Assembly (NCBI GenBank): GCA_001805965.1
Contig: MHHG01000027.1
Location: 477-64,476 of the forward strand
Direction: 5' to 3'
DNA: 64,000 nt
Source: Omnitrophica WOR_2 bacterium RIFOXYA2_FULL_38_17
GTDB taxonomy: Bacteria; Omnitrophota; Gorgyraeia; Zapsychrales; Zapsychraceae
A model generated the notes under the pieces. That model had not been told where the DNA came from. It was given only the letters and a program-made list of their open reading frames with translations, and made no database searches. Positions 12,828 through 64,000 of this stretch are shown here, one piece after another. Within the stretch, counting starts at the first letter, position 1. Every line of letters begins with the position of its first letter. The position numbers were made by a program, and so were the translations under genes.

Positions 12828-12832
12828 AAGAT

Positions 12833-18440: not shown

Positions 18441-19823
18441 TTAAGAGTCTTTCAGCTTTTCCATTCTTTCTTTAATTTTTCTCTCATAACCAAGCTCTCC
18501 AGGATTATAATATTTTGCATTTAAAGGCATGTATTCTTGCTTAATATAATGATCTTTATAATCATGTGCATATTTATAATCTTTTTGACGCCCAAGACTT
18601 TTAGCTCCTGCATACGAGGCATCTTTCAAGTGAACGGGAACTTCCTGGATTTTTTTATTCTTTACATCCTCCAAAGCATTATTAATAGCCATATATGCGG
18701 CATTTGATTTTGGTGAACAAGCCACATAAATAGCCGCCTGAGCCAGAGGGATCCTAGCCTCCGGCATGCCAATGAATTCTGATACCTGCAATGCGGCATT
18801 GGCCAAAACCAATGCCTGCGGGTCCGCATTTCCAACATCCTCAGCCGCGCAAATACATATCCTTCTGGCAATAAATCTTGGATCTTCACCGGCATATATC
18901 ATTTTTGCCATCCAATAAATTGCGGCATCAGGATCAGACCCTCTCATTGATTTAATAAACGCAGATGCTGTGTCATAATGGGAATCTCCATCTTTATCAT
19001 AAACGACTTGCTTCCTTTGAATTGATTCTTGTGCAATATTTAAGTCAAAATGTATCTTGCCATCTTTAGATTTTGGTGTAGTTGAGCACCCTATCTCCAA
19101 AGCATTGAGGGCTCTTCTCGCATCTCCATCACAAACCTCCGCAAGAAAATCAAGCGCTGCCGGCTTTACTTTTATGGGCAGCTTTCCAAGCCCTCTTTCT
19201 TTATCCTTTAAGGCCCTTTTTAAAATTTGCAGAAGCTCTTCTTTTGACAAAGAATTAAGCTCAAAAACCATAGATCTTGATAACAGTGGACTTGTTAACG
19301 AAAAGAAGGGATTTAAAACTGTTGCTCCGATTAAGATTAAACAGCCGGTTTCAACATCCGGCATTAAAACATCTTGCTGGGCTTTATTAAATCTATGGAT
19401 CTCATCAATAAAAAGAATTGTTTTTTGCCCCGATGTATTTATCCTGTTCAGGCTTCCTTTGATTATTTTCCTAAGGTCTTCAACGTTGGAAGAAACAGCA
19501 TTGATCCTTTCAAAACATGCTTTTGTCTTATTGCTGATACACTGGGCTAATGTTGTTTTACCTGTTCCGGGAGGCCCGTATAATATAAGAGAATTTATTT
19601 TATCTGCTTCAATCGCTCGCAACAGCAGCTTACCTTCTCCAAGGATATGCTTTTGTCCGACATATTCATCCAAGGAACGCGGGCGCATTCGCACACTCAA
19701 AGGCGAATTCGCAAATACCCTTTCTATTGTTGGCCCATCAAAAAGCCCTATTGAATTATTATCTTCACTGTTCATTGGAAAAATACATTCGCATAAAAAA
19801 ATCCCCACCATGCCGTCGGACAA
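18441..19823 (-). CDS. rarA: Replication-associated recombination protein A (AAA+ ATPase RarA/MgsA)
   Basis: Walker A GPPGTGKTT, a Walker B / sensor region and the MgsA C-terminal domain are present. The true start is possibly the internal MNSED Met. Confidence 0.85.
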   Translation of the reverse strand: MSDGMVGIFLCECIFPMNSEDNNSIGLFDGPTIERVFANSPLSVRMRPRSLDEYVGQKHILGEGKLLLRAIEADKINSLILYGPPGTGKTTLAQCISNKTKACFERINAVSSNVEDLRKIIKGSLNRINTSGQKTILFIDEIHRFNKAQQDVLMPDVETGCLILIGATVLNPFFSLTSPLLSRSMVFELNSLSKEELLQILKRALKDKERGLGKLPIKVKPAALDFLAEVCDGDARRALNALEIGCSTTPKSKDGKIHFDLNIAQESIQRKQVVYDKDGDSHYDTASAFIKSMRGSDPDAAIYWMAKMIYAGEDPRFIARRICICAAEDVGNADPQALVLANAALQVSEFIGMPEARIPLAQAAIYVACSPKSNAAYMAINNALEDVKNKKIQEVPVHLKDASYAGAKSLGRQKDYKYAHDYKDHYIKQEYMPLNAKYYNPGELGYERKIKERMEKLKDS

Positions 19824-20007
19824 GAGAATAGGTGAACCTTTTCACCAAGTGGGAACCTCTCCGAAATGTCCTCAAACATACCGGAAGTTTAGCGTCCCTT
19901 TATAGAGTGTTGGTTCTCTATAAACGTCCTAACGTACACAGCAGGGATTTATGATTTATGATAACACCGTATCAAGAAACATTCTATCTTTAAAATGTTA
20001 CTGGCTT

Positions 20008-29014: not shown

Positions 29015-29091
29015 TGGTGGGCCCAAGAGGGTTCGAACCCCTGACCTCTTCCACGTCAAGGAAGCGCTCTAACCAACTGAGCTATGGGCCC
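29015..29091 (-). tRNA. tRNA-Val (anticodon GAC), CCA encoded
   Basis: The reverse complement GGGCCCATAGCTCAGTTGGTTAGAGCGCTTCCTTGACGTGGAAG...TTCGAACC...GGGCCCACCA forms a canonical cloverleaf with anticodon loop TTGACGT. Confidence 0.85.
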
Positions 29092-29114
29092 AAAGCATTC
29101 CTTGCTAACATATA

Positions 29115-29197
29115 TGGGCAAGGTGGGAGTCGAACCCACACGACCTTGCGATCAAAGGATTTTAAGTCCTTCGTGTATGCCATTCCACCACTTGCCC
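29115..29197 (-). tRNA. tRNA-Leu (anticodon UAA), long variable arm
   Basis: In the reverse complement GGGCAAGTGGTGGAATGGCATACAC...AAGGACTTAAAATCCTT...GGGTTCGACTCCCACCTTGCCCA, the anticodon loop is CTTAAAA and there is a 16-nt variable arm. Confidence 0.85.
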
Positions 29198-29217
29198 TAA
29201 AATAATAATCACAAAAA

Positions 29218-29288
29218 AGGCGCGGACCGGATTTGAACCGGTGTACGTGGTTTTGCAGACCACTGCCTAACCCCTCGGCCACCACGCC
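29218..29288 (-). tRNA. tRNA-Cys (anticodon GCA)
   Basis: In the reverse complement GGCGTGGTGGCCGAGGGGTTAGGCAGTGGTCTGCAAAACCAC...CCGGTTCAAATCCGGTCCGCGCC+T, the anticodon loop is CTGCAAA and the discriminator is U. Confidence 0.85.
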
Positions 29289-32618: not shown

Positions 32619-33455
32619 TTATTGCCCTTCTTCCATTGTCCCAACAGAAGCATCTCTTTTTCTTAAGTCGTTTATTTCCAATAGTTTAGACCCATATTCT
32701 TCCGGCAACAACTCCTTAGCCAAGTCCATATACTTTATAGCCCCGACAGACGTCTTCTCATAATAATTGATTGGTTTACCATGACTAGGCGCCTCGCTCA
32801 ATCTGATATTTCTAGGGATGACTGTCTTGTAAACCTTCTCTTTAAAATATTCTTTAATTTCACCAATAACTTCTGCTGTAAGATTTGTCCTATAATCAGC
32901 CATTGTCAGGAGAACGCCTTCAACCATTAGCCTAGGATTTAAACTTTCCTTAATGAGCCTTATAGTTTTTACAAGCTGCGAAACCCCTTCAAGCGCATAA
33001 AACTCACATTGAATAGGAATCATTATAGAATCACTTGCAACCAACGAATTGAGTGTTAGCAATCCCAATGATGGAGGCGAGTCAATAAAAACAAAATCAT
33101 ACTCATCTTTAATCTCATCTAGAGCCCTCTTTAATCGTGTCTCCCTTGAAAAAGCGCCAACAAGCTCTATTTCTGCTCCAGTTAAATTAATGTTGCAGGG
33201 AATAATGTCCAAATTGGGAAAAACTGTATGAATTATAACATCTTTAGTAGTAACTTTACTTAACAAAAGATCGTAAACAGATATTTCTAGCTCATTTTTA
33301 TTAATACCTACCCCGCTAGTTGCATTACCTTGTGGATCGGAATCAACAATCAGTATTTTCTTTCCAAGCTCTGCTAATGACGAGGACAGGTTTACCGTTG
33401 TTGTTGTCTTGCCTGTCCCACCTTTTTGATTACAAATTGAAATGATTTTTGACAT
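32619..33455 (-). CDS. parA: Chromosome partitioning ATPase ParA/Soj
   Basis: Deviant Walker A KGGTGKTTT. The ParA fold is present with a ~25 aa C-terminal extension. Confidence 0.9.
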   Translation of the reverse strand: MSKIISICNQKGGTGKTTTTVNLSSSLAELGKKILIVDSDPQGNATSGVGINKNELEISVYDLLLSKVTTKDVIIHTVFPNLDIIPCNINLTGAEIELVGAFSRETRLKRALDEIKDEYDFVFIDSPPSLGLLTLNSLVASDSIMIPIQCEFYALEGVSQLVKTIRLIKESLNPRLMVEGVLLTMADYRTNLTAEVIGEIKEYFKEKVYKTVIPRNIRLSEAPSHGKPINYYEKTSVGAIKYMDLAKELLPEEYGSKLLEINDLRKRDASVGTMEEGQ

Positions 33456-53598: not shown

Positions 53599-55251
53599 AT
53601 GGATATTAAAAGTATTTTTGAAAAAATAAAGTTTGTCGCGCTAGGGGTCGTTTGTGTATCCGTAGCAATTATTTTTGCCTCATCGTTGGCGCAGGCCAAT
53701 GCCCTGGATGATATTTATAAAAATCTTGATACAACGAATGATAATGAGATTTTTATGGTTGTGGGAGAGTTGACGATAGCTAAGGTTACAAATATGACAA
53801 GGCTTTCAATTACAAATCCAGATATTGCTGATATTGTTGAAGCTGACGATAAAGAGATTCTTCTTATAGCAAAACAGCCTGGGCAAACAATACTTTTTGT
53901 CTGGGATGATGCGGGAAAAAGAATGGTTTTTGTTAATGTTCAAGCCGCAGATATGGGAATGCTTGATATGGCCATCCAAAGAATAGATACTCTTTTAAAA
54001 AAGGGAAGAATTGAAGGGATAAAGTTAGAGCCTAATAAAAGAGAAGGCAAGATATTTGTGACAGGTGATCTTGCAGAAGAAAATGAAGAGATGCTTGATA
54101 AGATCTTGGATGGATATGCGGATATTATTGTGAATCTTATAAGGAAAGAAGAGATTCAAGACCTTATTCAAGTAGACATGCAAATGACAGAATTAAACAC
54201 CACTCTTACAAAGAGCTTGGGCATAGATTGGTCTGCTGGAACGAGTGGCGTATCCTTGACATATCCTGAAGAGTTGCCGGAAATGGATGGTACGATAGGT
54301 GACTTTTTTAAGATTGGAGATTTTAGCAGAACATCAATGTTAACAGCAACAGTTAAAGCTTTGTTAGAAAAAGGAGAAGCCAGGGTTCTTTCTCGACCAA
54401 AAGTAGTAGTTATAAGCGGGGAAGAGGCAAGTTTCTTGGTTGGGGGGGAAATCCCTATTAAGACAACAACTTCTTCTGCTGAAGGGACCCAAGAAAATGT
54501 TTCCTTTAAAGAATATGGTATTGGATTAACGATAACGCCGACAATAAAAAAAGAAAAAATAGATATTCAGCTAAATGTTGAGATCAGTGATGTTGCTTCT
54601 GGAACAGGAAACGAAACGTCTTTTTTTACAGAGACAACAACAACGCGAGTTCTTTTAAACAATAAACAAACGATGGTTCTTGCTGGTCTAATCAAAGAGA
54701 ACAGAGGTTCTAGCGTGCGAATGGTTCCTTTTTTTGGGCAAATACCCGTAGTTGGGATGCTTTTTAGGTCTAAAGGAACTAATCCATCAGAGACTGATAA
54801 AGAGCTGGTTATTTCAATGACTCCTACTATTTTAGAGAGAAATCGCAACAATATAGAAGAGGTAAAAGAGGAAAAGGTTGAAGAATATAGAACGACGGCC
54901 ATATATAAACAAAAAGTTTCTTCATCCTCTTCAGTTCCCTACTATTTGGGAATACCAAAAAACATGACTGAGTATGTAAGAAATGTTCAGAAGCAAATTT
55001 CAAAAGCGATTCTTTATCCTCCCGAGGCAAAAAGATATGGGTGGGAAGGAACAGTTAGGATGAATTTGCTGATACTAAAAGATGGAACTCTTGCATATGC
55101 TTTAATTCAAGAATCATCAGGGCATGAGATTATGGATGAAAGTGCTCTAAGGGCGGCAAAAAGACTTGCGCCGTACTCAGGGTTTCCTTCAGATGTAGAC
55201 CTGCAGGAATTGAATATTACTGTTCCAATTGTTTACAGCTTTAAGAAATAA
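53599..55251 (+). CDS. cpaC: Tad/Flp secretin CpaC/RcpA fused to a C-terminal TonB_C domain
   Basis: A signal peptide, BON/N-domain-like region and secretin core (VLSRPKVVVISGEEASFLVGGEIPI...) are present. The last ~100 aa match TonB_C (YPPEAKRYGWEGTVRMNLLILKDGTL...ESSGHEIMDESALRAAKRLAPYSGFP). Confidence 0.8.
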   Translation: MDIKSIFEKIKFVALGVVCVSVAIIFASSLAQANALDDIYKNLDTTNDNEIFMVVGELTIAKVTNMTRLSITNPDIADIVEADDKEILLIAKQPGQTILFVWDDAGKRMVFVNVQAADMGMLDMAIQRIDTLLKKGRIEGIKLEPNKREGKIFVTGDLAEENEEMLDKILDGYADIIVNLIRKEEIQDLIQVDMQMTELNTTLTKSLGIDWSAGTSGVSLTYPEELPEMDGTIGDFFKIGDFSRTSMLTATVKALLEKGEARVLSRPKVVVISGEEASFLVGGEIPIKTTTSSAEGTQENVSFKEYGIGLTITPTIKKEKIDIQLNVEISDVASGTGNETSFFTETTTTRVLLNNKQTMVLAGLIKENRGSSVRMVPFFGQIPVVGMLFRSKGTNPSETDKELVISMTPTILERNRNNIEEVKEEKVEEYRTTAIYKQKVSSSSSVPYYLGIPKNMTEYVRNVQKQISKAILYPPEAKRYGWEGTVRMNLLILKDGTLAYALIQESSGHEIMDESALRAAKRLAPYSGFPSDVDLQELNITVPIVYSFKK

Positions 55252-55307: not shown

Positions 55308-57632
55308 ATGAGTGCAAAAATAATAACTATTTTTAGTAACAAAGGTGGCGTTGGCAAAACGTTTGTTTCTGTTAATATGGCTACGGCCTTGGCCCTTGCA
55401 AAGTATAAAGTTCTTTTGATCGATATGGATTTTCAGGCTGGTCAGGATATGGCAAGAACCATGAACCTGTCTCCAAAGAACTCGATTGTTGATGTTCTGC
55501 AGCAAATAGAAGCAGTTACAGACCATGTCGTTATTAGAAGGTTTTCTGCGCGACATACTTGTGGATTGGACTTTATGGCGGCAGTTAAGAATACCCGTCA
55601 AATAAGTTTAATTACGCCAGACAATATAAAACCATATCTTAGAAAAATCTCAGAAGTATATGACTTTATTCTTATCGACGCAGGAAAAGCTTTCCATGAA
55701 CCACTTATTACAGTGTTCGATTATTCCAACCTTATTTTATTAGTGGCAACTCCGGATATTTTGGCTGTTTATCAAATAAAGTGGTGCCTTGATGTTCTTC
55801 AGAGCCTGCAGTTTCCAATGAAAATGATCAAGCTGCTTTTGAACAGGTCTGAGAGCCGTGGAAGCGTTGCCTGGCAGGAAGTTAAATCTGCACTTACTTG
55901 TGAGATTTTTGGACATGTGCCTTCCGATGGCAAGGCAGTGGGCATTGCTCTTAACAGGGGAATCCCCTGTGTTATAGATAATCCAAAGAGTCATGTTGGA
56001 GAAGCTTTTATCAAGCTAGTTGATGCTTTCCGAAAGGAAAGCAATTTTGTTCCTGCAATGGATGTTGAAAAGATAAGGAGCAAAGAAGAGCTGCCTAAGC
56101 CAGGAGAATTTTGGGCTAAATATGGCATTGCTCAGCAAATGGGTACGGCGCCTTCAGGAAAAGCTTACGCTTCGCAGGAAGATGAAATAAGTATTTTAAA
56201 AAGAAAAATTCATCTAAAGTTGGTTGACAGGCTTAACAAAGAAGGCATTTCTCTAGAGGCTTTAAGCGATCCTGAATCTATACATAAGGTTAAAAAAATG
56301 GCTGAAGGAGTAGTTGGTACTTTGCTTACAGAAGAAGCTGGTGGCAAGATATCTTCACATGAAGAGAGGGTCCGTTTAGTCAGAGATATTGTCAACGAAG
56401 CTTTAGGCTTAGGACCATTAGAAGATCTTTTAGCTGATCCGGATATAACGGATATTATGGTCAATTGTAGAGACGAGATTTATGTTGAAAAGAGCGGAAA
56501 ACTTGTTCTTACTGATTATAGTTTTGTTTCGGAGGACAAGATGAGGGCTATTATTGACAGGATTATTGCTCCTTTAGGTAGAAGAATAGATGAATCCACG
56601 CCGATGGTTGATGCGCGTTTGCCTGATGGCTCAAGAATTAATGCTATCATTCCGCCGCTTTCTCTGCGTGGGCCAATGATAACTATCAGAAAGTTTGGGG
56701 CTGAAAGACTTAATACTTTTGATTTGCTAAATAAATATCATAGCGTGACCAAAGAGATGGTTTTGTTTTTGAATTGTGCTGTTATTGGCCGCAAAAATAT
56801 TATTGTTTCAGGGGGAACAGGTGCGGGTAAAACAACATTGTTAAACGTTGTCTCTGAGTTTATTCCTGATAATGAAAGAATTATAACTATTGAGGACGCG
56901 GCTGAGTTGCGATTAAAAAAAAGCCATTGCGGAAGACTGGAGTCTAGGCCCAGAAACATTGAAGGTAAGGGCGAGGTTACCATTAGAGATTTATTTATTA
57001 ATTGCCTGAGAATGAGGCCTGACCGTATAGTTATCGGTGAGTGCCGTGGCCCTGAAGTTTTAGACATGTTGCAGGCTATGAACACGGGCCATGATGGATC
57101 TTTGACCACATTGCACGCAAATACAACTAGAGACGTTGTTACTCGTATGCACTCAATGATCCTTTTAAGCGGCATTGAATTGCCTGTCAGGGCTATTAAT
57201 GAAATGATCGCTTCAGCTATCGATATTATTGTTCAGATCAATCGTTTTTCAGATGGAACTCGAAAGGTCACACAAATTTCTGAAACTTGTGGCATGGACG
57301 AAGATCACCAGCTGATATTGAAAGATGTTTTTATTTATAATCAAAAAGGGATTGATTTGGATGGGCGTGTCGTTGGAGACTATGAAGCAACAGGCTATGT
57401 TCCGGAAAGCTTCAATGACTTTGTAACGCGAGGGCTGAAAATTGAAAAGAGCCTTTTTGATAAACGTACTATTTATGTTAATACTGATGAAAAAATAGAG
57501 GTTCCTGAAGTCGAGATATTAGCCCCTGAGGAAGTAAAAAAACTAGTTGTTGGACAATCTAAAACAGTGCAACCTAATGCTCAGCCTAAACAGGCTCAGC
57601 CGCCTACTCTGCCGCCAAAGCCGGCGGAGTAG
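55308..57632 (+). CDS. Fused Tad ATPases: CpaE/TadZ-like ParA-family ATPase + CpaF/TadA secretion ATPase
   Basis: The N-terminus starts with a deviant Walker A (FSNKGGVGKTFVS, ParA/MinD type). The middle region carries the CpaF N-domain (GLGPLEDLLADPDITDIMVNCRDEIYVE). The C-terminal half is a VirB11/TadA-type ATPase with Walker A GGTGAGKTTLLN, Asp/His boxes, and a Pro/Gln-rich tail. Confidence 0.85.
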   Translation: MSAKIITIFSNKGGVGKTFVSVNMATALALAKYKVLLIDMDFQAGQDMARTMNLSPKNSIVDVLQQIEAVTDHVVIRRFSARHTCGLDFMAAVKNTRQISLITPDNIKPYLRKISEVYDFILIDAGKAFHEPLITVFDYSNLILLVATPDILAVYQIKWCLDVLQSLQFPMKMIKLLLNRSESRGSVAWQEVKSALTCEIFGHVPSDGKAVGIALNRGIPCVIDNPKSHVGEAFIKLVDAFRKESNFVPAMDVEKIRSKEELPKPGEFWAKYGIAQQMGTAPSGKAYASQEDEISILKRKIHLKLVDRLNKEGISLEALSDPESIHKVKKMAEGVVGTLLTEEAGGKISSHEERVRLVRDIVNEALGLGPLEDLLADPDITDIMVNCRDEIYVEKSGKLVLTDYSFVSEDKMRAIIDRIIAPLGRRIDESTPMVDARLPDGSRINAIIPPLSLRGPMITIRKFGAERLNTFDLLNKYHSVTKEMVLFLNCAVIGRKNIIVSGGTGAGKTTLLNVVSEFIPDNERIITIEDAAELRLKKSHCGRLESRPRNIEGKGEVTIRDLFINCLRMRPDRIVIGECRGPEVLDMLQAMNTGHDGSLTTLHANTTRDVVTRMHSMILLSGIELPVRAINEMIASAIDIIVQINRFSDGTRKVTQISETCGMDEDHQLILKDVFIYNQKGIDLDGRVVGDYEATGYVPESFNDFVTRGLKIEKSLFDKRTIYVNTDEKIEVPEVEILAPEEVKKLVVGQSKTVQPNAQPKQAQPPTLPPKPAE

Positions 57633-57650
57633 CTATAATCCTTTCAAGTA

Positions 57651-57995
57651 TTGAGAATACTCAATAAAACAAAACAGAACACAATAGCAGATAAGGCCCT
57701 TCTTGCAGATAATTTTTTAACTAGAATGGTTGGGCTCCTTGATCGAAAGTCTTTGAAAGAAGGAGAAGCTCTGGTTATTACCAGGTGTAATTCTATTCAT
57801 ATGTTTTTTATGAAATTTGCCATTGATGCTGTTTTTGTTAGCAAAGAGAACATAGTTGTTGGTCTAGTTCAAGATATCAAGCCATTTCAGCTCAGCCGCA
57901 TTTATTTTAAGTCTAGCTATGTTGTAGAGCTGCCATCCAGCACAATATTTAGATTAGGAATTGCTATTGGCGATCAATTAGCAATCTTAAGCTAA
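57651..57995 (+). CDS. DUF192-family protein
   Basis: 114 aa. The DUF192/COG1430 pattern matches ...RMVGLLDRKSL.EGEALVI..CNSIHMFFMKFAIDAVFV...VVELPSSTIFRLGIAIGD. Confidence 0.55.
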   Translation: MRILNKTKQNTIADKALLADNFLTRMVGLLDRKSLKEGEALVITRCNSIHMFFMKFAIDAVFVSKENIVVGLVQDIKPFQLSRIYFKSSYVVELPSSTIFRLGIAIGDQLAILS

Positions 57996-58025
57996 TCAAT
58001 GTCCAAAAAAAACACAATCTTTTAA

Positions 58026-58051
58026 CTAAAGCTTTTTTATTGTGATATACT
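58026..58051 (+). promoter_or_regulatory. Promoter element of the 674-aa gene, shared with the flp array (CTAAAGCTT...TATTGTGATATACT, extended -10 TGnTATACT)
   Basis: Near-identical to 60295-60318 upstream of the flp array. Both end in TGATATACT, an extended -10. Confidence 0.5.
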
Positions 58052-58143
58052 GAAAATGCATTAATGTCCAATGTGCGTAAAACAATAGATTTCTATTAGA
58101 TTGGACATTGTTGAGTTGTTTAACTATTGCAAAGGGATAAAGT

Positions 58144-60168
58144 ATGGGAGTAGTCCACAAATTGAGAAAGGAAGTTTTTGACTTTATTATCAACCAGAAG
58201 AAGGAAGATCCCTCTCTTAGTTGTCGACAAATATCAGATCTTATAAGCAGTAAGTTTGAAATTAAAGTATCAAAGTCTTCAGTTAACTCTGTTTTAAAAA
58301 GCACTCAGTTAAGCAGTTCAGTGGGAAGACGGGTCCTAAAAAAAGCGATGTCTAAAAAATTCCAAATTCCTCAACAAAAGAAACAACAATTACTAGAGAG
58401 CATTTCAACCCTTGGTTTTACCTTTGACCATAAGGCTACGGCTGAAGAGGATCCGCTGGGAGCGATCAAGGACAATGTCTTTGCAGAAAAGCAGCAGGAA
58501 GAAGGCTTTTCTCTAGAAAAACTTTCTCTGGAGCTTCAGGAGCATGATAGAAAAAAACGCAAGAGCAGGATTTTTTATGATGCAACAAACCAAGAAGTTG
58601 AAGATATAGCAGCGGCTCAAATGACACAAGGAGTACAGGGAGAAAATAAAGAAGCAAGCGCCAATAAAGAGAAGAAGGCATATATTGTTCCCGCTGGTCC
58701 GATATTCTTTGATGAGGAACAATTCCTTTATGATTTAAAAATTGCCAGAGAAGATAAAGAAAAAGAAAAAAATAATAGGCATTTGTATGATAATGCGGGA
58801 GTGGTTTTTTTAAAAGCTGCGCAGATTGATACAGATGGAGAAAATCTTTTGGGAGATCTGTTTAGAAAAAATTCAAAAGGTGTTGTTGTCGATAATTTTA
58901 ATAATATTTGTTCGGGCTTGCTGTTTCTTAAAGCATTTAATATTCAATCTGTAGAGAATATTGAAAAATCAAAGAATGATGCTTTATGGAGATTAAATGG
59001 CTTTAGAAAAGGGTATCCAGGAAGAGAAAATCTTTTTGGGTGGACGCAGAAGATTGATTTTTCAAATCAATTACAATTGGAATATCTTAATGAAAAAGAG
59101 CAGTCTTTAAGCAGTATAAAGGCTTTCAGGATCATCTTTGAGGATGCCACAAGCATTATCCTTGATGCCCAAATGAGGTCTATTTGGAGAGAGCCAGTAC
59201 AGCAAGATTTGTTTTCTTCTTTAAGTAGTGCAATGACGCTTCTTTCCAAAAAACTTATAAGCAATAATGAGTGTTTGGTGATGGATGTTTTAAGAGAAAA
59301 AGGCATCAATAGAACGGATTTTGCAAGAATTCTTGCTTCTTTTTTTGATATTATTGGCAGAAAAATGCGCAAAATTGAAGTATTAAGCGAAAAACAAGAA
59401 ATACTTGCTGAATTTACTCTTATTCCTTCAATTAAGCGCTTTTTTATTGTGGGATTTAGGCCTTATCAGGAGATTTTTAAAGAATATATTTGTAGTATTA
59501 CAGATACTGTTGAATTTCCCTATTATGACAGGCCAAGAGACAGAGTCTTATACTATTCGGAAGTAAATGTTCCATTGGTGGCTTTATTGAAGGATTTTGT
59601 AAGTATTCCTCAAATTCTTCAAGAAGAAAGGCCTTTAAAATGGGTGCTTTTAGGACAACAAAAGAAAAAAGCATCTCAAATAGCTCTTTTGACAAACATG
59701 ACTACAGAGAAAGCAGAAAGTATTATTTCAAAATACTTAACCCGTTGGCCAAGTGCATTTAATAAACAATATATAGAGGAAGGAGACAGAACAGACATTA
59801 ATAGAGAAGAGCTTAATAAAAATCAGAAAGAATATCAATGTTACGCTGGTGACTTTGTTGAAAAGGTGTTTGACAATTTTGGAGATATTTTTAACGATTA
59901 CATTTTAACCCTGCATAAGTATTGTTTAGATAAATATTTTCCAAAACAAAAAAGTGAAATTGACATAAAAACTATGGTGTCAATATTTTATGGATTGCAG
60001 GGTTTTGTAAGGGAAAGTTATGATCAATTAATTGTTACAATTTTGATACCTCAAGGGTACAATTTCCTTGATATCTTGGAATTTGCCATTAGTAGAGTAA
60101 ATGACAGACACTTAGTAACAAAGGATGGCAGAGGTATTTATGTAAGTGCTGAAAAAGTAAAAGCTTAG
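58144..60168 (+). CDS. Hypothetical 674-aa cytoplasmic protein (possible N-terminal HTH), embedded in the Tad locus
   Basis: A long ORF with a good SD (AAAGGGATAAAGTATG) and no TM or signal peptide. The first ~60 aa look HTH-like (SLSCRQISDLISSKFEIKVSKSSVNSVLKS). No recognisable catalytic motif. Confidence 0.6.
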   Translation: MGVVHKLRKEVFDFIINQKKEDPSLSCRQISDLISSKFEIKVSKSSVNSVLKSTQLSSSVGRRVLKKAMSKKFQIPQQKKQQLLESISTLGFTFDHKATAEEDPLGAIKDNVFAEKQQEEGFSLEKLSLELQEHDRKKRKSRIFYDATNQEVEDIAAAQMTQGVQGENKEASANKEKKAYIVPAGPIFFDEEQFLYDLKIAREDKEKEKNNRHLYDNAGVVFLKAAQIDTDGENLLGDLFRKNSKGVVVDNFNNICSGLLFLKAFNIQSVENIEKSKNDALWRLNGFRKGYPGRENLFGWTQKIDFSNQLQLEYLNEKEQSLSSIKAFRIIFEDATSIILDAQMRSIWREPVQQDLFSSLSSAMTLLSKKLISNNECLVMDVLREKGINRTDFARILASFFDIIGRKMRKIEVLSEKQEILAEFTLIPSIKRFFIVGFRPYQEIFKEYICSITDTVEFPYYDRPRDRVLYYSEVNVPLVALLKDFVSIPQILQEERPLKWVLLGQQKKKASQIALLTNMTTEKAESIISKYLTRWPSAFNKQYIEEGDRTDINREELNKNQKEYQCYAGDFVEKVFDNFGDIFNDYILTLHKYCLDKYFPKQKSEIDIKTMVSIFYGLQGFVRESYDQLIVTILIPQGYNFLDILEFAISRVNDRHLVTKDGRGIYVSAEKVKA

Positions 60169-60288
60169 GTTGTTTGACGGGAAAATAATAAAAAAGCTGT
60201 TGTCACTAGCTGTTTTTCGGTTTATATTTATTGTTAGTGAATTGGTTTTTTTACATTTATTAGTGTCTAAAAAAATAAACAGGTTCTA

Positions 60289-60318
60289 TTGACACTAAAG
60301 CTTGTATTATGATATACT
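60289..60318 (+). promoter_or_regulatory. Predicted sigma70-type promoter of the flp pilin array (TTGACA-n18-TGaTATACT)
   Basis: A -35 TTGACA at 60289-60294 and an extended -10 TG-a-TATACT at 60310-60318. It is followed by a ~270-nt leader before the first pilin ATG. Confidence 0.55.
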
Positions 60319-60590
60319 TTTGTTACATATTGGATAAACAGAATATTGTTTTGTAGTCTGTTCAATATTGATATAACGCTTTTTGACAGAATAGTTTCGA
60401 GTTAATACACCGTTTAGGTGTTTTATTCTTCTGCTTTTGGGATAGACCGGAGACACGGTGGTCAAAAGTAGAGGAGCCGAAAAGTTCGGCAATAGAGTCC
60501 CGGGAATTCGATTCAGTGTTTAGCAAGAATGGGGCAAAGTTTATCTGTTGCACATGTTAGGTAGTTGCGGTATGGCGAGGAACAAAAAAA

Positions 60591-60746
60591 ATGAAAAAAT
60601 GGAATCATAAAGGTCAAAATCTAATTGAATATGCCATGGTCGCAGCTTTAATTTCCGTAGCAGTTGTTGCTATGAGTACCTACGTGTATAGGTCAGTTCA
60701 GGCCACCCAGCAGGTAATACAAGAAGAATTCAAAGCATCACAATAA
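60591..60746 (+). CDS. flp: Flp-family type IVb prepilin (short, canonical; likely major pilin)
   Basis: 51 aa: MKKWNHKG|QNLIEYAMVAALISVAVVAMSTYVYRSVQ... It has the Flp G/XXXXEY processing motif and a single hydrophobic helix. It is under 60 aa, so not in the ORF track. Confidence 0.75.
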   Translation: MKKWNHKGQNLIEYAMVAALISVAVVAMSTYVYRSVQATQQVIQEEFKASQ

Positions 60747-60889
60747 TATTTACGCGAGAAAAGACGAACAGATAATAATTTCTGTGTCATTGCTTGCGTA
60801 AGGCTTAAAAATTAGTGTATTTTTAGGCTTAATTAAGCAAAAACCCTTGTTTAGTAACAGGGATTGTTATTATCGAAGGAGGATAAATA

Positions 60890-61120
60890 ATGCTTAAAAG
60901 GATGATTCATAAAACATCTGGCAAAATGAAAAGAGGCCAGAGCACAGTAGAGTACATTATTTTGATAGCTGCTGTTTTAGCCGCTCTCATTATTTTCTTA
61001 GGACCAGGAGGGCCATTCCAGACTGCATTTAACACAACAATCAACTCTGGTACAGATGGTATGGAAGACATGGCAGACAGATTAGCTGGTTCAAGACCTG
61101 CTGCTAACAGTACCCCTTAA
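60890..61120 (+). CDS. Flp-family prepilin paralog 2 (76 aa)
   Basis: MLKRMIHKTSGKMKRG|QSTVEYIILIAAVLAALIIF. A strong SD GAAGGAGG precedes it. Confidence 0.75.
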   Translation: MLKRMIHKTSGKMKRGQSTVEYIILIAAVLAALIIFLGPGGPFQTAFNTTINSGTDGMEDMADRLAGSRPAANSTP

Positions 61121-61179
61121 TCAGGAGAATAAGAAGGAATCCAGTTATTTGGAGAAGTTAAAATTAGGAGGTAAAATCA

Positions 61180-61542
61180 ATGCTTAGAAAATTGATTAAA
61201 AATAAAAAAGCGCAAAACACAGCCGAGTATGCAATTTTGATATCTCTGGTTGTTGCTGGTATTATTGCCATGCAGACTTATGCTCAAAGAGCATTGCAGG
61301 CAAGAGTTCGTGATGCCGCACAGCATCTTGCTACACAAACCAATGGTTTAGGCAACACAGTACAATATGAACCTTATTATTTATCAACTGATTATAACAT
61401 TATTCGGGATGAAACTATGACCGAAAGTTATGACTCAGATGCTATTTTGAAAGGTGAAAATTCTACTAGAACAAGGCAAGAGGGTGGTCGTCAGACAACT
61501 TCTTACGATACATCAGTTGCTGGTATTCAAAACGGTCTCTAA
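61180..61542 (+). CDS. Flp-like prepilin paralog 3 with extended C-terminal tail (120 aa)
   Basis: ...KKA|QNTAEYAILISLVVAGIIAMQTYAQRALQARVRDAAQ, with Ala at -1. The Ser/Thr/Tyr/Asp-rich tail contains YEPYY. SD is AGGAGG. Confidence 0.7.
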   Translation: MLRKLIKNKKAQNTAEYAILISLVVAGIIAMQTYAQRALQARVRDAAQHLATQTNGLGNTVQYEPYYLSTDYNIIRDETMTESYDSDAILKGENSTRTRQEGGRQTTSYDTSVAGIQNGL

Positions 61543-61612
61543 TAGTAGACCTGATTGGTTAGTAACATAAGAAGTGCTCTTTAGAAGAGGTAAAATTAAG
61601 GAGGCTAAAACA

Positions 61613-61942
61613 ATGTTTGAATATTTAAATAAAAGAAGAAAGAAAGGCCAGAGCACGCTAGAATATGCAATTTTGATTATCATTATCATAGGCGCTCTAG
61701 TCTCAATTCAGGTCTACATAAAGAGAGGTATTCAAGGTCGCTTAAAAGGTGCGGCTGATGATATCGGAGAACAATTTTCCCCTGGAAACACAAATGTGCA
61801 AAAAACAGTAAGAACTATAAGTTATACATCAGATACCAATATTGGTGGTGTTGTAACTTCAGCGTTACTTAACGACGAAGAAACAGTTACCCAAGGAACT
61901 TCAAGAATTGCTAATGTTGAGCAAGAATATTGGGGAAGTTAA
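61613..61942 (+). CDS. Flp-like prepilin paralog 4 with extended C-terminal tail (109 aa)
   Basis: The start is taken at ATG 61613 after SD AAGGAGG. MFEYLNKRRKKG|QSTLEYAILIIIIIGALVSIQVYIKRGIQGRLKGAADDIGEQF. Confidence 0.7.
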   Translation: MFEYLNKRRKKGQSTLEYAILIIIIIGALVSIQVYIKRGIQGRLKGAADDIGEQFSPGNTNVQKTVRTISYTSDTNIGGVVTSALLNDEETVTQGTSRIANVEQEYWGS

Positions 61943-61988
61943 TAAAAGCTGTTTTGTAAAACGTAAGTTCTTAGTGTGACAATCAGAT

Positions 61989-62031
61989 CCGGTTTGCCGA
62001 GAAATATTTTTTCGGCAAACCGGTTTTTTTT
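61989..62031 (+). terminator. Strong intrinsic terminator after pilin paralog 4
   Basis: CCGGTTTGCCGA-gaaatatttttt-TCGGCAAACCGG followed by TTTTTTTT. Confidence 0.85.
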
Positions 62032-62237
62032 GCACAAAGAAAAGATTTATCGATGTTTGTTTGTGATTAAATTTTTTGGTAAAATAACGCAAAAAAGACA
62101 AAAAGGGTTTCCGTAAGTTTATGGTAGTGTTAGTTTTGTACGTTTGAAAAATCAATCCCAGCTCTATTCATTTACATAAAAATAATGTATACTTATTGTA
62201 TGAGTCTTAAAATTATTTAAAAAGGGGCGAGTTTGTT

Positions 62238-62621
62238 ATGCTAAGGATTGTTAAGAATAATAGAGCTCAGGCGGTAGTCGGCGAATATGTTATAGTGTTT
62301 TTTATTGCCATCGGAGTTATTACAGCAATGAGCACTTATTTTCAAAGAGTTGTTCAGGGCAGAATTTATGATGCCAGAGATGCAATGGTCAGTCTTACAA
62401 GAAATCAATCAGCAGGATATTTTAACGGCAACATTTTTTTTCATTATGAGCCCTATTATCAAAATACTGATTCAGAAACCTATCGCAGTCTTATTTCGAG
62501 AACTAGTCTTGTCGAGGGGGGGACCAGTGGCATTTACAGGGTCGAATATGATGATCTTTCAAGGATAACTAGCACAAGTGTGACTAAGCCGCCAAGGGAT
62601 GCAGATAAGGAATATGAATAG
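62238..62621 (+). CDS. Flp-like prepilin paralog 5 with extended C-terminal tail (127 aa)
   Basis: MLRIVKNNRA|QAVVGEYVIVFFIAIGVITAMSTYFQRVVQGRIYDARD. The tail contains HYEPYY and resembles paralog 3. Confidence 0.7.
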   Translation: MLRIVKNNRAQAVVGEYVIVFFIAIGVITAMSTYFQRVVQGRIYDARDAMVSLTRNQSAGYFNGNIFFHYEPYYQNTDSETYRSLISRTSLVEGGTSGIYRVEYDDLSRITSTSVTKPPRDADKEYE

Positions 62622-62642
62622 CAAATTAGTCTAGAGGGAAGA

Positions 62643-62996
62643 ATGTTTAAAGGGAATTTACAATTTTGGAAAAATAATAAAGCTCAAAGCATTCTAGAGT
62701 ATTCATTGATCATAGGAATAGTGACGGTGATTTTTTTTAATATGGGGACATTTCTTAAAAGAGGCACGCAGGGGATGATTAAGACGATTGCTGATCAAAT
62801 CGGAGATCAAAGGAATGGTGACCAGATTTTTGATGTTGAAGAAGGCTTTATGGTAAATGCTTTTATTGACACTGATGCCACGACAGAAAAAACAAGAGGG
62901 GAAGATGCCGGTGTCGTAACGCATTATTATAATGATAGGATGCACTCTGAGTCAACGACTGAAACACTCTTAGGCTTTCAGGAAGAAGAAGATTAA
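62643..62996 (+). CDS. Flp-like prepilin paralog 6 with extended C-terminal tail (117 aa)
   Basis: MFKGNLQFWKNNKA|QSILEYSLIIGIVTVIFFNMGTFLKRGTQGMIKTIADQIGDQ. It ends with an acidic C-terminus. Confidence 0.7.
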   Translation: MFKGNLQFWKNNKAQSILEYSLIIGIVTVIFFNMGTFLKRGTQGMIKTIADQIGDQRNGDQIFDVEEGFMVNAFIDTDATTEKTRGEDAGVVTHYYNDRMHSESTTETLLGFQEEED

Positions 62997-63030
62997 AAAA
63001 ATAAAGTTGTTATTGAAACAGGAGAGATTT

Positions 63031-63345
63031 ATGTTTAAAAGAATAAGAAAAGGTCAAACATCAATGGAGTTCCTGATCTTGATGACAGTTATTCTTGCGG
63101 CTTTTTTATCGATAGGGAATTATTTCAAAAGAGGAGTACAGGGAAGATGGAAAACCGCTGTTGATGAATTAGGAGAACAATATGATCCTAGGACGGGAAA
63201 CACTATGCTGGTACATAGGATAATCTCAAATACGGATACGCAGATCATTTCTTTAAACACCACAGGAGGCTGGTGGACGTCGAGAAGAGATATGACGAAT
63301 GTCGTTGAAACTAAATCCGGACATGTTTCCGCTGGGTCATATTAA
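63031..63345 (+). CDS. Flp-like prepilin paralog 7 with extended C-terminal tail (104 aa)
   Basis: The start is taken at ATG 63031 after SD AGGAGAG. MFKRIRKG|QTSMEFLILMTVILAAFLSIGNYFKRGVQGRWKTAVDELGEQYD. Confidence 0.7.
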   Translation: MFKRIRKGQTSMEFLILMTVILAAFLSIGNYFKRGVQGRWKTAVDELGEQYDPRTGNTMLVHRIISNTDTQIISLNTTGGWWTSRRDMTNVVETKSGHVSAGSY

Positions 63346-63388
63346 GTTTATTCTTAATTGTTAAGAATCTGGTGGTTTGAGGGGCGAT

Positions 63389-64000
63389 ATGAAAAAAATT
63401 CATAATAAAGACGATGTTAAAATAAACAAAGAATCTGGCCAGACTGCAATGGAATTGGCGGTTTTTGGTTCAATATTTATTTTTACAATGGGTCTTATTG
63501 TAAGAACTGCTCTTGGTTATGGGTATCAGCAGGGCCAGACTTTGAAGGCGATGAGAATGGCGATGAGAATGTCCTATATGTATTCATCGGGACAGATGGG
63601 CAGCCATGGGGATAACAATGCATCAAGAAATTCAGCAACTGTTGTTTTGATAGAGGACAGGCTGACTTCTTCAAGCGCGAAATATGGTACGGTTGACAGG
63701 GTTCCTTACATGTTGTCGGGGGCAGCCACTCACAGCAGAAATCTTTTTCTTAATATTGATTCCAATGAGGATTTCAGTTTATCAGTTGTTGATTATTGGA
63801 TAAACGGTCAGCGTTTTCCTTTCTCAAATGCGAGGTTTATAAATGTCCCGTTAAACAATGGCAATCCTAACTGGGATCCCATGTGTGCAAGGACAGCTGC
63901 CGGTGCGATCATTGGATGTGTTGCTGTTTACGAAAAAATCCCAAATCACGACGGCATTGATGATTGGGATGCTGGCTGTGACGTATGTTTTGATCTTAAC
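63389..64000 (+). CDS. TadE/TadG-like pseudopilin (N-terminal part; continues beyond window)
   Basis: MKKIHNKDDVKINKESG|QTAMELAVFGSIFIFTMGLIV is a TadE-like N-terminal domain with a Flp-type cleavage motif. The frame is open to the window end (204 codons). Confidence 0.7.
   Translation, partial: MKKIHNKDDVKINKESGQTAMELAVFGSIFIFTMGLIVRTALGYGYQQGQTLKAMRMAMRMSYMYSSGQMGSHGDNNASRNSATVVLIEDRLTSSSAKYGTVDRVPYMLSGAATHSRNLFLNIDSNEDFSLSVVDYWINGQRFPFSNARFINVPLNNGNPNWDPMCARTAAGAIIGCVAVYEKIPNHDGIDDWDAGCDVCFDLN

Follow-up and report, generated by a model that had tools for sequence, protein, structure and literature searches.

A riboswitch of the cyclic di-GMP-II (c-di-GMP-II) class precedes the pilin gene pilA1 of Clostridioides difficile, and the c-di-GMP-I (GEMM) leaders likewise serve as points of comparison for riboswitches linked to pilins. 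The leaders of ribosomal protein genes, in turn, are autoregulatory translational operators located in mRNA. Here we describe a Tad pilus locus of the Omnitrophota in which a predicted structured RNA of ~170 nucleotides (nt) lies directly ahead of flp1, the first gene of an array coding for Flp-type prepilins, and most likely controls its translation. The locus belongs to a stretch of 64,000 nt from Omnitrophica WOR_2 bacterium RIFOXYA2_FULL_38_17 (assembly GCA_001805965.1, contig MHHG01000027.1, positions 477 to 64,476 of the forward strand), the whole of which we term the window, and all coordinates below count from its first letter. An initial sequence-only reading of the window had drawn attention to this leader, and to a gene for a 674-residue protein upstream of it that appeared to share a promoter element with the pilin array.

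The flp leader resembles the c-di-GMP pilin riboswitches in being a conserved, structured 5' leader directly before a major pilin gene, and in possessing multiple helices, invariant junction nucleotides and a 3' end that reaches the ribosome-binding site. It differs from them in its plan of three consecutive hairpins followed by a P4/P5 domain, in having no match in Rfam, and in being tied to a single gene context, and its binding of a ligand would be hypothetical. With the ribosomal protein leaders it shares confinement to a single operon, the embrace of both Shine-Dalgarno sequence and start codon, and lineage-wide conservation; unlike them, it has no candidate RNA-binding protein; the pilin is a membrane prepilin, and the helix-turn-helix (HTH) of the neighboring 674-residue protein is of a DNA-binding type. 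The leader can be likened to a riboswitch or a translational operator, and it belongs to no known family. In our reading, to which we assign a probability of roughly 70%, the locus combines three separate things: promoters of the sigma-70 type, a 674-residue Tad-locus component that binds boxes at its own promoter, and a leader RNA that gates the translation of flp1.

The Omnitrophota are uncultured and mostly ultra-small, and the Tad pilus is the chief genomic clue to their attachment to hosts or prey (PMC10066038). Tad complexes were reported across the phylum in that study (Seymour et al. 2023, PMC10066038), which relied on Rfam alone for RNA annotation; it mentions neither the HTH protein nor the leader RNA, and the words riboswitch, transposase and hypothetical are absent from its text. 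Riboswitch, Rfam and helix-turn-helix are all likewise absent from the text of a 2026 Omnitrophota preprint, and our literature searches otherwise returned nothing on either element. Set against Tad/Flp loci in general (tadZ/cpaE, tadA/cpaF, rcpA, rcpC, flp), the window carries genes for RcpC, a secretin, a TadZ-TadA fusion and Flp-type pilins, as recognized with Pfam.

A covarying leader RNA ahead of flp1

The sequence-only reading had proposed a leader of ~270 nt with several small hairpins and, with it, post-transcriptional control. The distance from a presumed start just after the -10 element (60313-60318) to the flp ATG at 60591 is indeed about 265 nt, and the two hairpins that it named, ACACCGTTTAGGTGT at 60407-60421 and CCGAAAAGTTCGG at 60477-60489, are helices H1 and H3 of a covarying motif, so that the proposal proved strongly supported and, if anything, understated. 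The leader of the window and the gene that follows are laid out thus:

60327 to 60368, + strand: H0, inverted repeat ATATTGGA...TTCAATAT just past the presumed start, confined to the sub-lineage of the window
60407 to 60421, + strand: H1, hairpin ACACC-GTTTA-GGTGT, followed by UUUUAUUC
60427 to 60475, + strand: H2, long hairpin (UCUUCUGCUUUUG pairing with CAAAAGUAGAGGA) that encloses an inner hairpin and is part of the minimum-energy fold
60476 to 60490, + strand: H3, hairpin GCCGAA-AAG-TTCGGC
60491 to 60579, + strand: core of the leader motif, comprising the junction AAUAGA, P4, P5, P6 and a conserved tail
60491 to 60496, + strand: junction AAUAGA of the core
60497 to 60501 with 60531 to 60535, + strand: helix P4 of the core
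60511 to 60514 with 60527 to 60530, + strand: helix P5 of the core
60543 to 60548 with 60552 to 60554 and 60560 to 60562, + strand: predicted helix P6, pairing with the ancestral Shine-Dalgarno sequence
60567 to 60576, + strand: conserved tail GCG..GGC of the core
60572 to 60610, + strand: putative upstream open reading frame (ORF) of twelve codons, starting beside the ancestral start-codon position and overlapping the flp ATG out of frame
60591 to 60746, + strand: flp1, 51-residue Flp-type prepilin, first gene of the pilin array (Pfam Flp_Fap, E 6.5e-7)

For comparison of non-coding sequence we used three syntenic loci: L001 and L002, which share 76-79% nucleotide identity with the window, and L042 (JAHJCZ01), the closest species representative, with 83% identity across 6.7 kb. 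The wider set of leader loci was gathered with a degenerate pattern for the pilin core rather than with the RNA sequence, as selection on the RNA itself was to be avoided. This pattern recovered 52 GTDB species, every one named Omnitrophota or placeholder 'Planctomycetales'. It was used again for metagenomes, where it returned 113 stretches, because DNA patterns based on the RNA recovered at most 12 of the known leader copies. Given the raw leaders in a gappy MAFFT alignment, RNAalifold predicted nothing; as MAFFT was unable to align P5, we built length-normalized seeds for two covariance models, R1 for the core of the leader only and R2 spanning H1 through the start codon.

R1 yielded one match per locus, 87 in total, every one of them 27-52 nt before the pilin anchor. 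Its sole match in the window lies at 60488-60579 (61.4 bits, E 1e-13), and with filters off the runner-up scored 10.6 bits. R2 yielded 78 matches representing 70 distinct sequences, in which 94.2% of the cells of the model are paired, versus 76.0% in shuffles and 34-51% with slid partners. Both partners change in 26 of the 30 pairs, among them all 23 pairs of H1, H2, H3, P4 and P5; all five modeled pairs of each of the three hairpins covary, and H3 is paired in 97.7% of cells. The fold, as predicted from these sequences, is shown by the covariation, and the leader thereby offers what riboswitches in general possess, namely a conserved, covarying and structured candidate aptamer. P6 has compatible pairing in 87-100% of cells. 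Between the helices and around the start codon, unpaired nucleotides are invariant throughout the phylum (AUA, A13, U129, UGU, CG and GGC).

Most loci follow a common plan. H1, usually ACACC-GNRA-GGUGU, is followed by UUUAUYC, H2 and H3; then come AAUAGA and P4 (GCCCU/AGGGC), which surrounds a GGAAUUC-like linker and P5; and the 3' part consists of AAGGnUyAUCUGU, ACAC, AGGUG and GCGAUGnGGC. Of 72 leaders, 66 have a hairpin of the H1 type with its U-run, and most of these hairpins carry a GNRA loop. In a simple scan H1 looks like a terminator (5 pairs, 3 of them G-C, tail TTTATTCTTC); its stem is short, and the U-rich tail continues into the 5' strand of H2. In the window, the minimum-energy fold displays the helices of the motif (-53.9 kcal/mol, z = -2.4), and H3 has a helix score of 16.8, where shuffles give 10.6. 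The R2 alignment of the window copy begins at 60443 (60443-60579) and takes the inner hairpin of H2 for H1, and H1 at 60407-60421 was assigned by hand from the close relatives L001, L002 and L042, which aligned in full. Compensatory changes in H2 are visible even among the window, L001 and L002, and in these three genomes the interval 60400-60590 retains 88-95% identity, versus 55-75% for neighboring genes. The arms of H0, which lies outside the phylum-wide motif, are also maintained through changes in L001 and L002.

None of the known families accounts for this element: Rfam gave no relevant match within 57500-64000 at E<=5, nor within 60290-60600 at E<=10, and with Rfam 15, including the c-di-GMP-I and -II riboswitches, no gathering score was reached in the leaders of the window and nine other loci. 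A mutual-information scan of all column pairs recovered P4 alone among the canonical pairs. An alternative AGCC/GGCU pairing is compatible with 87-92% of the sequences and shows no covariation. We rejected a pseudoknot in which the GGAAUUC linker of P4 and P5 would pair with the AAGGAUU following P4, with duplex scores of 7.9 within and 8.15 between sequences. A CsrA site at CAAGGAU was likewise dropped, since its GGA is not conserved in the lineage of the window.

Three further observations concern the leader. A CUUUGAC element recurs 20-25 nt 5' of H1 in L010, L025 and L043; the copy in the window (60381-60387) repeats the sequence of the H2 5' strand and might take its place in pairing with GUCAAAAG (60461-60468), which makes it a candidate for an alternative structure. 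The H0 repeat ATATTGGA..TCCAATAT has a CCAAT/ATTGG core resembling the AATGTCCAAT..ATTGGACATT repeat after the promoter of the 674-residue protein gene, with the order of the arms reversed. Finally, a variant class of leader, which R1 does not detect, lies upstream of flp1 in L027, L047, L048, L051, L056 and L059; it shares its 5' half with the other leaders (AUAGA, GGCCC, AAGAAUUCC, a hairpin and GGGCC) and a distinct 3' half (CGCCUUUACG..AGGAGCA).

Start codon and proposed control of flp1

Of 76 sequences, 55 use the AUG of the motif as the in-frame start codon of flp1. The remaining 21, including the window, have a start shifted downstream and yet retain the flanking GCG..GGC, so it is the RNA, not the protein, that is under constraint. 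In the lineage of the window the ancestral start codon of the motif has been lost (GCG-GUA-UGGC). In the window and L001 the upstream ORF beginning with the ATG at 60572 is out of frame with the flp ATG (60591), and in L002 and L042 it is in frame; the difference stems from the length of the A-run at 60583-60590, and could be either a homopolymer error of assembly or a real difference in frame.

These features lead to a model in which the flp1 transcript would begin with the conserved ~170-nt RNA, whose 3' end includes the Shine-Dalgarno sequence and, for most lineages, also the start codon. Within P6, AUC(U) would pair with the Shine-Dalgarno (A)GGU, and UGU with ACA, a plausible pairing through which translation of flp1 would be gated. 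The control may be exerted by a ligand or a protein bound at the conserved junctions. Given that the flp promoter is near-consensus, expression is probably set post-transcriptionally, and control of flp1 translation is the most likely role of the leader.

A serious alternative to such gating is a purely stabilizing leader, that is, a passive 5' untranslated region (UTR) that stabilizes or processes an abundant pilin mRNA, and in which structure matters without any switching. The strong, constitutive-type promoter, the restriction of the motif to one gene context and the failure to detect an alternative pairing all fit this account, as does the unusual conservation of the pilin genes at the nucleotide level, which is expected with very high expression. 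Nevertheless, the invariant unpaired nucleotides of the junctions and the start codon exceed the needs of hairpins that merely confer stability, and it is the stems that vary freely while the junctions do not; we consequently hold a passive leader to be rather unlikely. Also unlikely, in our estimate, is a more far-reaching proposal in the opposite direction, according to which the leader represents a new, Omnitrophota-specific class of riboswitch that switches on the Tad pilus, and the 674-residue protein a domesticated transposase turned locus regulator with an unseen fold.

The 674-residue protein, its operator-like boxes and the two promoters

The region between the TadZ-TadA fusion gene and the leader contains the following features:

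57998 to 58006, + strand: AATGTCCAA box 1, exact copy upstream of the promoter of the 674-residue protein gene
58022 to 58051, + strand: promoter-like site of that gene, TTAACT-18 nt-TATACT with TG at 58043-58044, including block 1 (58026-58051)
58063 to 58071, + strand: AATGTCCAA box 2, within the 5' UTR; distant lineages keep it as AATGTCCAA(T)(C)(T)G
58101 to 58109, - strand: AATGTCCAA box 3, inverted copy reading TTGGACATT on the + strand
58144 to 60168, + strand: gene for the 674-residue protein, with an HTH in residues 1-65, a low-confidence linker (~60-185) and an alpha/beta domain (~190-674) with no detectable relative
60289 to 60318, + strand: flp promoter, TTGACA-18 nt-TATACT with TG at 60310-60311, including block 2 (60295-60318)

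The 674-residue protein, for which the sequence-only reading had correctly given the gene and suggested an N-terminal HTH, is not the orphan for which it was taken. A word-indexed search found 26 relatives, and a profile search recovered 914 clusters at E<=1e-3, 660 of them at E<=1e-30, with full-length matches. In nine of ten loci fetched by protein look-up, the family gene lies between the genes for the TadZ-TadA ATPase and DUF192 and the flp array, even where the relatives are just 24-30% identical; in the tenth the contig stops after the family gene, and in L009 other genes come next. More generally, the gene is immediately upstream of flp1 and on the same strand in 41 of 49 distinct Omnitrophota flp1 loci with enough upstream sequence, a fixed place that marks it as a conserved component of the locus, neither orphan nor mobile. 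It gave no Pfam or NCBIfam match to TadZ, TadA, TadB, TadC, RcpA, RcpC, TadE, TadF or TadG, which are matched by its neighbors.

In the window protein, residues 1-65 gave weak Pfam matches to HTH_Tnp_Tc3_2, HTH_32 and HTH_33, and across 72 diverse members of the family these same domains were detected, always N-terminally and with no others (HTH_32 in 40, HTH_Tnp_Tc3_2 in 34, HTH_33 in 20), so that the HTH of transposase type is supported by weak and consistent matches in 20-40 of the 72 (best E 6e-6). An AlphaFold2 model built with the family alignment has a mean predicted local distance difference test (pLDDT) score of 82.8, exceeding 90 across most of residues 190-674. In a Foldseek search of PDB and BFVD with this model solely the HTH was matched, to the Pax paired domain (probability 1.0, E 0.14 for the best match). 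The C-terminal ~480 residues found no relative in Pfam, NCBIfam, PHROGs, PADLOC or PDB, whether by sequence or, for PDB, by Foldseek; G219 and N518 are its only invariant residues, and D341, W535 and P536 are nearly invariant. The gene probably encodes a conserved cytoplasmic component of the Omnitrophota Tad locus, in which an N-terminal HTH of transposase/paired type is joined to a large domain of unassigned fold. The proposal that it is a locus-specific regulator or cytoplasmic factor gains indirect support from the conserved synteny, the genuine HTH and the operator-like boxes at its own promoter.

These boxes came to light in the alignment upstream of the 674-residue protein gene, which shows the AATGTCCAAT...ATTGGACATT repeat and a third copy. 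When one mismatch was allowed, 50 of 61 distinct regions upstream of family genes had at least one AATGTCCAA box, with a mean of 1.36 per 200 nt versus 0.086 in background. The density of exact boxes is 4.75 per kb over the 200 nt preceding family genes, 0.32 per kb within the gene and 0.026 per kb in the rest of the loci, which places the upstream density at ~180 times background. In the common layout a proximal site at -21 to -36 is accompanied by a second site 56-65 bp further upstream, in direct or inverted orientation; other lineages have an inverted copy upstream of the promoter. The picture looks like an autoregulatory operator: the 674-residue protein would most likely bind the boxes that bracket its own promoter, and thereby repress or tune its own transcription.

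The boxes might instead act in RNA, as a hairpin in the 5' UTR of the 674-residue protein gene. Boxes 2 and 3 do constitute a transcribed inverted repeat with a variable loop in the window, L001, L002 and L042. In most other lineages, however, the partner box is found 56-65 bp further up, past the -10 element and probably untranscribed, and it is often a direct rather than an inverted copy, on which grounds a site in DNA is the likelier interpretation and a role in RNA a distinctly doubtful one. Exact copies at 33204, 33868 and 34993 lie within coding sequences and were not counted as sites. Exact copies are also 12-fold enriched inside the family gene itself (for example at 8898 in L004, at 3799 and 3895 in L008, and at 7029-7510 in L014); these are mainly in sense orientation and in frame 0, where they encode N-V-Q, 720-1090 nt past the start, and the gene in the window has none. 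Such intragenic copies may be internal operators or merely conserved codons.

As to the two promoters, the blocks of sequence to which the sequence-only reading had pointed are located as it claimed, CTAAAGCTTTTTTATTGTGATATACT at 58026-58051 and CTAAAGCTTGTATTATGATATACT at 60295-60318. By the criterion for a sigma-70 promoter with an extended -10 (TTGACA, a spacer of 16-18 nt, TATAAT, and a TG one base before the -10), both sites qualify in sequence: the flp promoter, the top promoter-like match within 57600-62300 in a consensus scan, has 11 of 12 consensus positions plus the TG, and that of the 674-residue protein gene 9 of 12 plus the TG. In L001 and L002 the -35 and -10 of the flp promoter (TTGACA..TGATATACT) are invariant, and so is TGTGATATACT of the other promoter, where the spacer varies.

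The two blocks had been taken to indicate a shared element for co-regulation, by a dedicated sigma factor or activator, of the 674-residue protein gene and the pilin array. The composite pattern CTAAAGCTT-N(4-12)-TGATATACT does occur twice in the window and never in 100 dinucleotide-preserving shuffles, the exact 9-mer TGATATACT is found in the window solely at these two promoters, and -10 boxes of the TATACT type recur at both promoters in further lineages. Comparison of orthologous loci nonetheless separates the two halves of the element. The extended -10 (TGnTATACT) is kept in L001, L002 and L042, whereas CTAAAGCTT is replaced by TTCTTGCTT or CGTTTGTGT at the 674-residue protein gene promoter and by CAAAAGTAA or CCCAAGTCA at the flp promoter of L001 and L002, with AGCT alone retained in L042. 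Furthermore, CTAAAGCTT lies within the -35/-10 spacer, the flp promoter comes close to a perfect sigma-70 consensus, and the intergenic DNA of the window is enriched in extended -10 elements: TGnTATAMT occurs 10 times versus 5.7 expected, and 6 of 12 TGnTATAHT sites fall within the 14% that is non-coding, ahead of unrelated genes. As CTAAAGCTT is unconserved and TGnTATA(A/C/T)T is present at unrelated intergenic sites, the shared element is best regarded as a generic extended -10, and the additional CTAAAGCTT identity is, on this comparison, lineage-specific and not a conserved regulatory element. We therefore find no support for dedicated co-regulation, which was already weakened by the orthologous loci and strikes us as very improbable, and we favor two sigma-70-type promoters with a common generic extended -10, TGaTATACT.

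The HTH raises the further question of whether the 674-residue protein is a transposase of a mobile element lodged in the pilus locus, with the AATGTCCAA boxes as its terminal repeats. Residues 1-65 do resemble the HTH of IS630/Tc1-mariner transposases in the domains that they match, and superpose on the paired domains of Pax-6 and Pax-5 (probability 1.0, root mean square deviation 1.3-2.9 A, E 0.14-0.3); inverted boxes are present, and a Y..RWP..E stretch of the alignment is, as we read it, loosely reminiscent of the motifs of DDE transposases. On the other hand, none of the 72 members has DDE_3 or any other Pfam transposase catalytic domain, the IS630 model of NCBIfam, whose cut-off is 100 bits, gives 16 and matches over the HTH alone, Foldseek returned no RNase H-like or transposase match, and the C-terminal domain has no invariant acidic residue, D341 alone being nearly so. 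The genomic evidence points the same way: no terminal repeats surround the gene, the boxes flank the promoter rather than the gene, the location does not change among loci whose proteins share just 22-30% identity, and each cluster is found on one or two contigs. Such a mobile transposase is highly improbable; the protein has just the HTH in common with the IS630/Tc1 transposases and fails their other defining features, and it may descend from an anciently domesticated transposase.

Several points must be counted against the three-part reading that we prefer. The leader motif is found in one gene context alone, which is unusual for metabolite riboswitches, and duplex-score and mutual-information scans of the leaders found no alternative 'ON' structure or helix. 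P6 is nearly invariant, with four of its six pairs varying on one side only, so its pairing is compatible with the data rather than proven. Both covariance-model seeds were length-normalized by hand, and alignments to such models are biased toward the modeled structure. The link from the HTH to the boxes is one of co-occurrence, and boxes are missing from 11 of the 61 upstream regions as well as from the flp promoter of the window. Lastly, a 10-nt identity between the spacers of the two promoters, ACTAAAGCTT, is improbable by chance.

The pilin array and biological significance

The genes flp1-flp3 (60591-61400) share 90-98% nucleotide identity among the window, L001 and L002, synonymous sites included, versus 55-75% for the flanking genes, which suggests strong selection on the mRNA or the codons, or else gene conversion. 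The leader and the pilin genes together make up a block of ~1 kb with 90-98% identity among the three closest genomes, and minus-strand ORFs of 61 and 63 codons span the leader; yet a hidden small ORF or a recent horizontal exchange is scarcely credible as the cause of the conservation of the leader, and we regard coding and recent transfer as excluded by the compensatory double changes in 26 of 30 pairs over 70 distinct sequences and by segment lengths that differ by non-multiples of three (the P5 loop ranges from 3 to 53 nt), the intergenic interval 60750-60800 within the block having also diverged normally.

Elsewhere in the window, a strong terminator-like hairpin at 61989-62023 (16 pairs, then T8) divides the pilin array after its fourth pilin gene, and a further set of pilin-like genes begins at 62238. 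Two features further upstream recur in related loci: a single ORF for 774 residues (55308-57632) that joins a TadZ/CpaE-like ParA domain to the TadA/CpaF ATPase, and a secretin with a C-terminal TonB_C domain (53599-55251). The window also contains a 6S RNA (19798-19950, - strand, 55 bits), a tRNA cluster Val-Leu-Cys (29015-29288, - strand), and tRNAs at 12832 (Gln) and 44566 (Glu).

A covarying RNA that is found across the phylum around the start of the major pilin gene provides a concrete and testable handle on the timing of pilus production. The leader is a well-supported addition to the catalogue of structured RNAs, and is open to synthesis, probing and ligand screening without culturing the organism. 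The 674-residue protein and its AATGTCCAA boxes offer a second testable layer of regulation, and its C-terminal domain represents a confidently modeled fold with no relative in the searches that were run. If the leader were indeed a new class of riboswitch, it would sense a signaling molecule or metabolite and turn on the pilus with which these ultra-small and probably host-dependent organisms attach to other cells.

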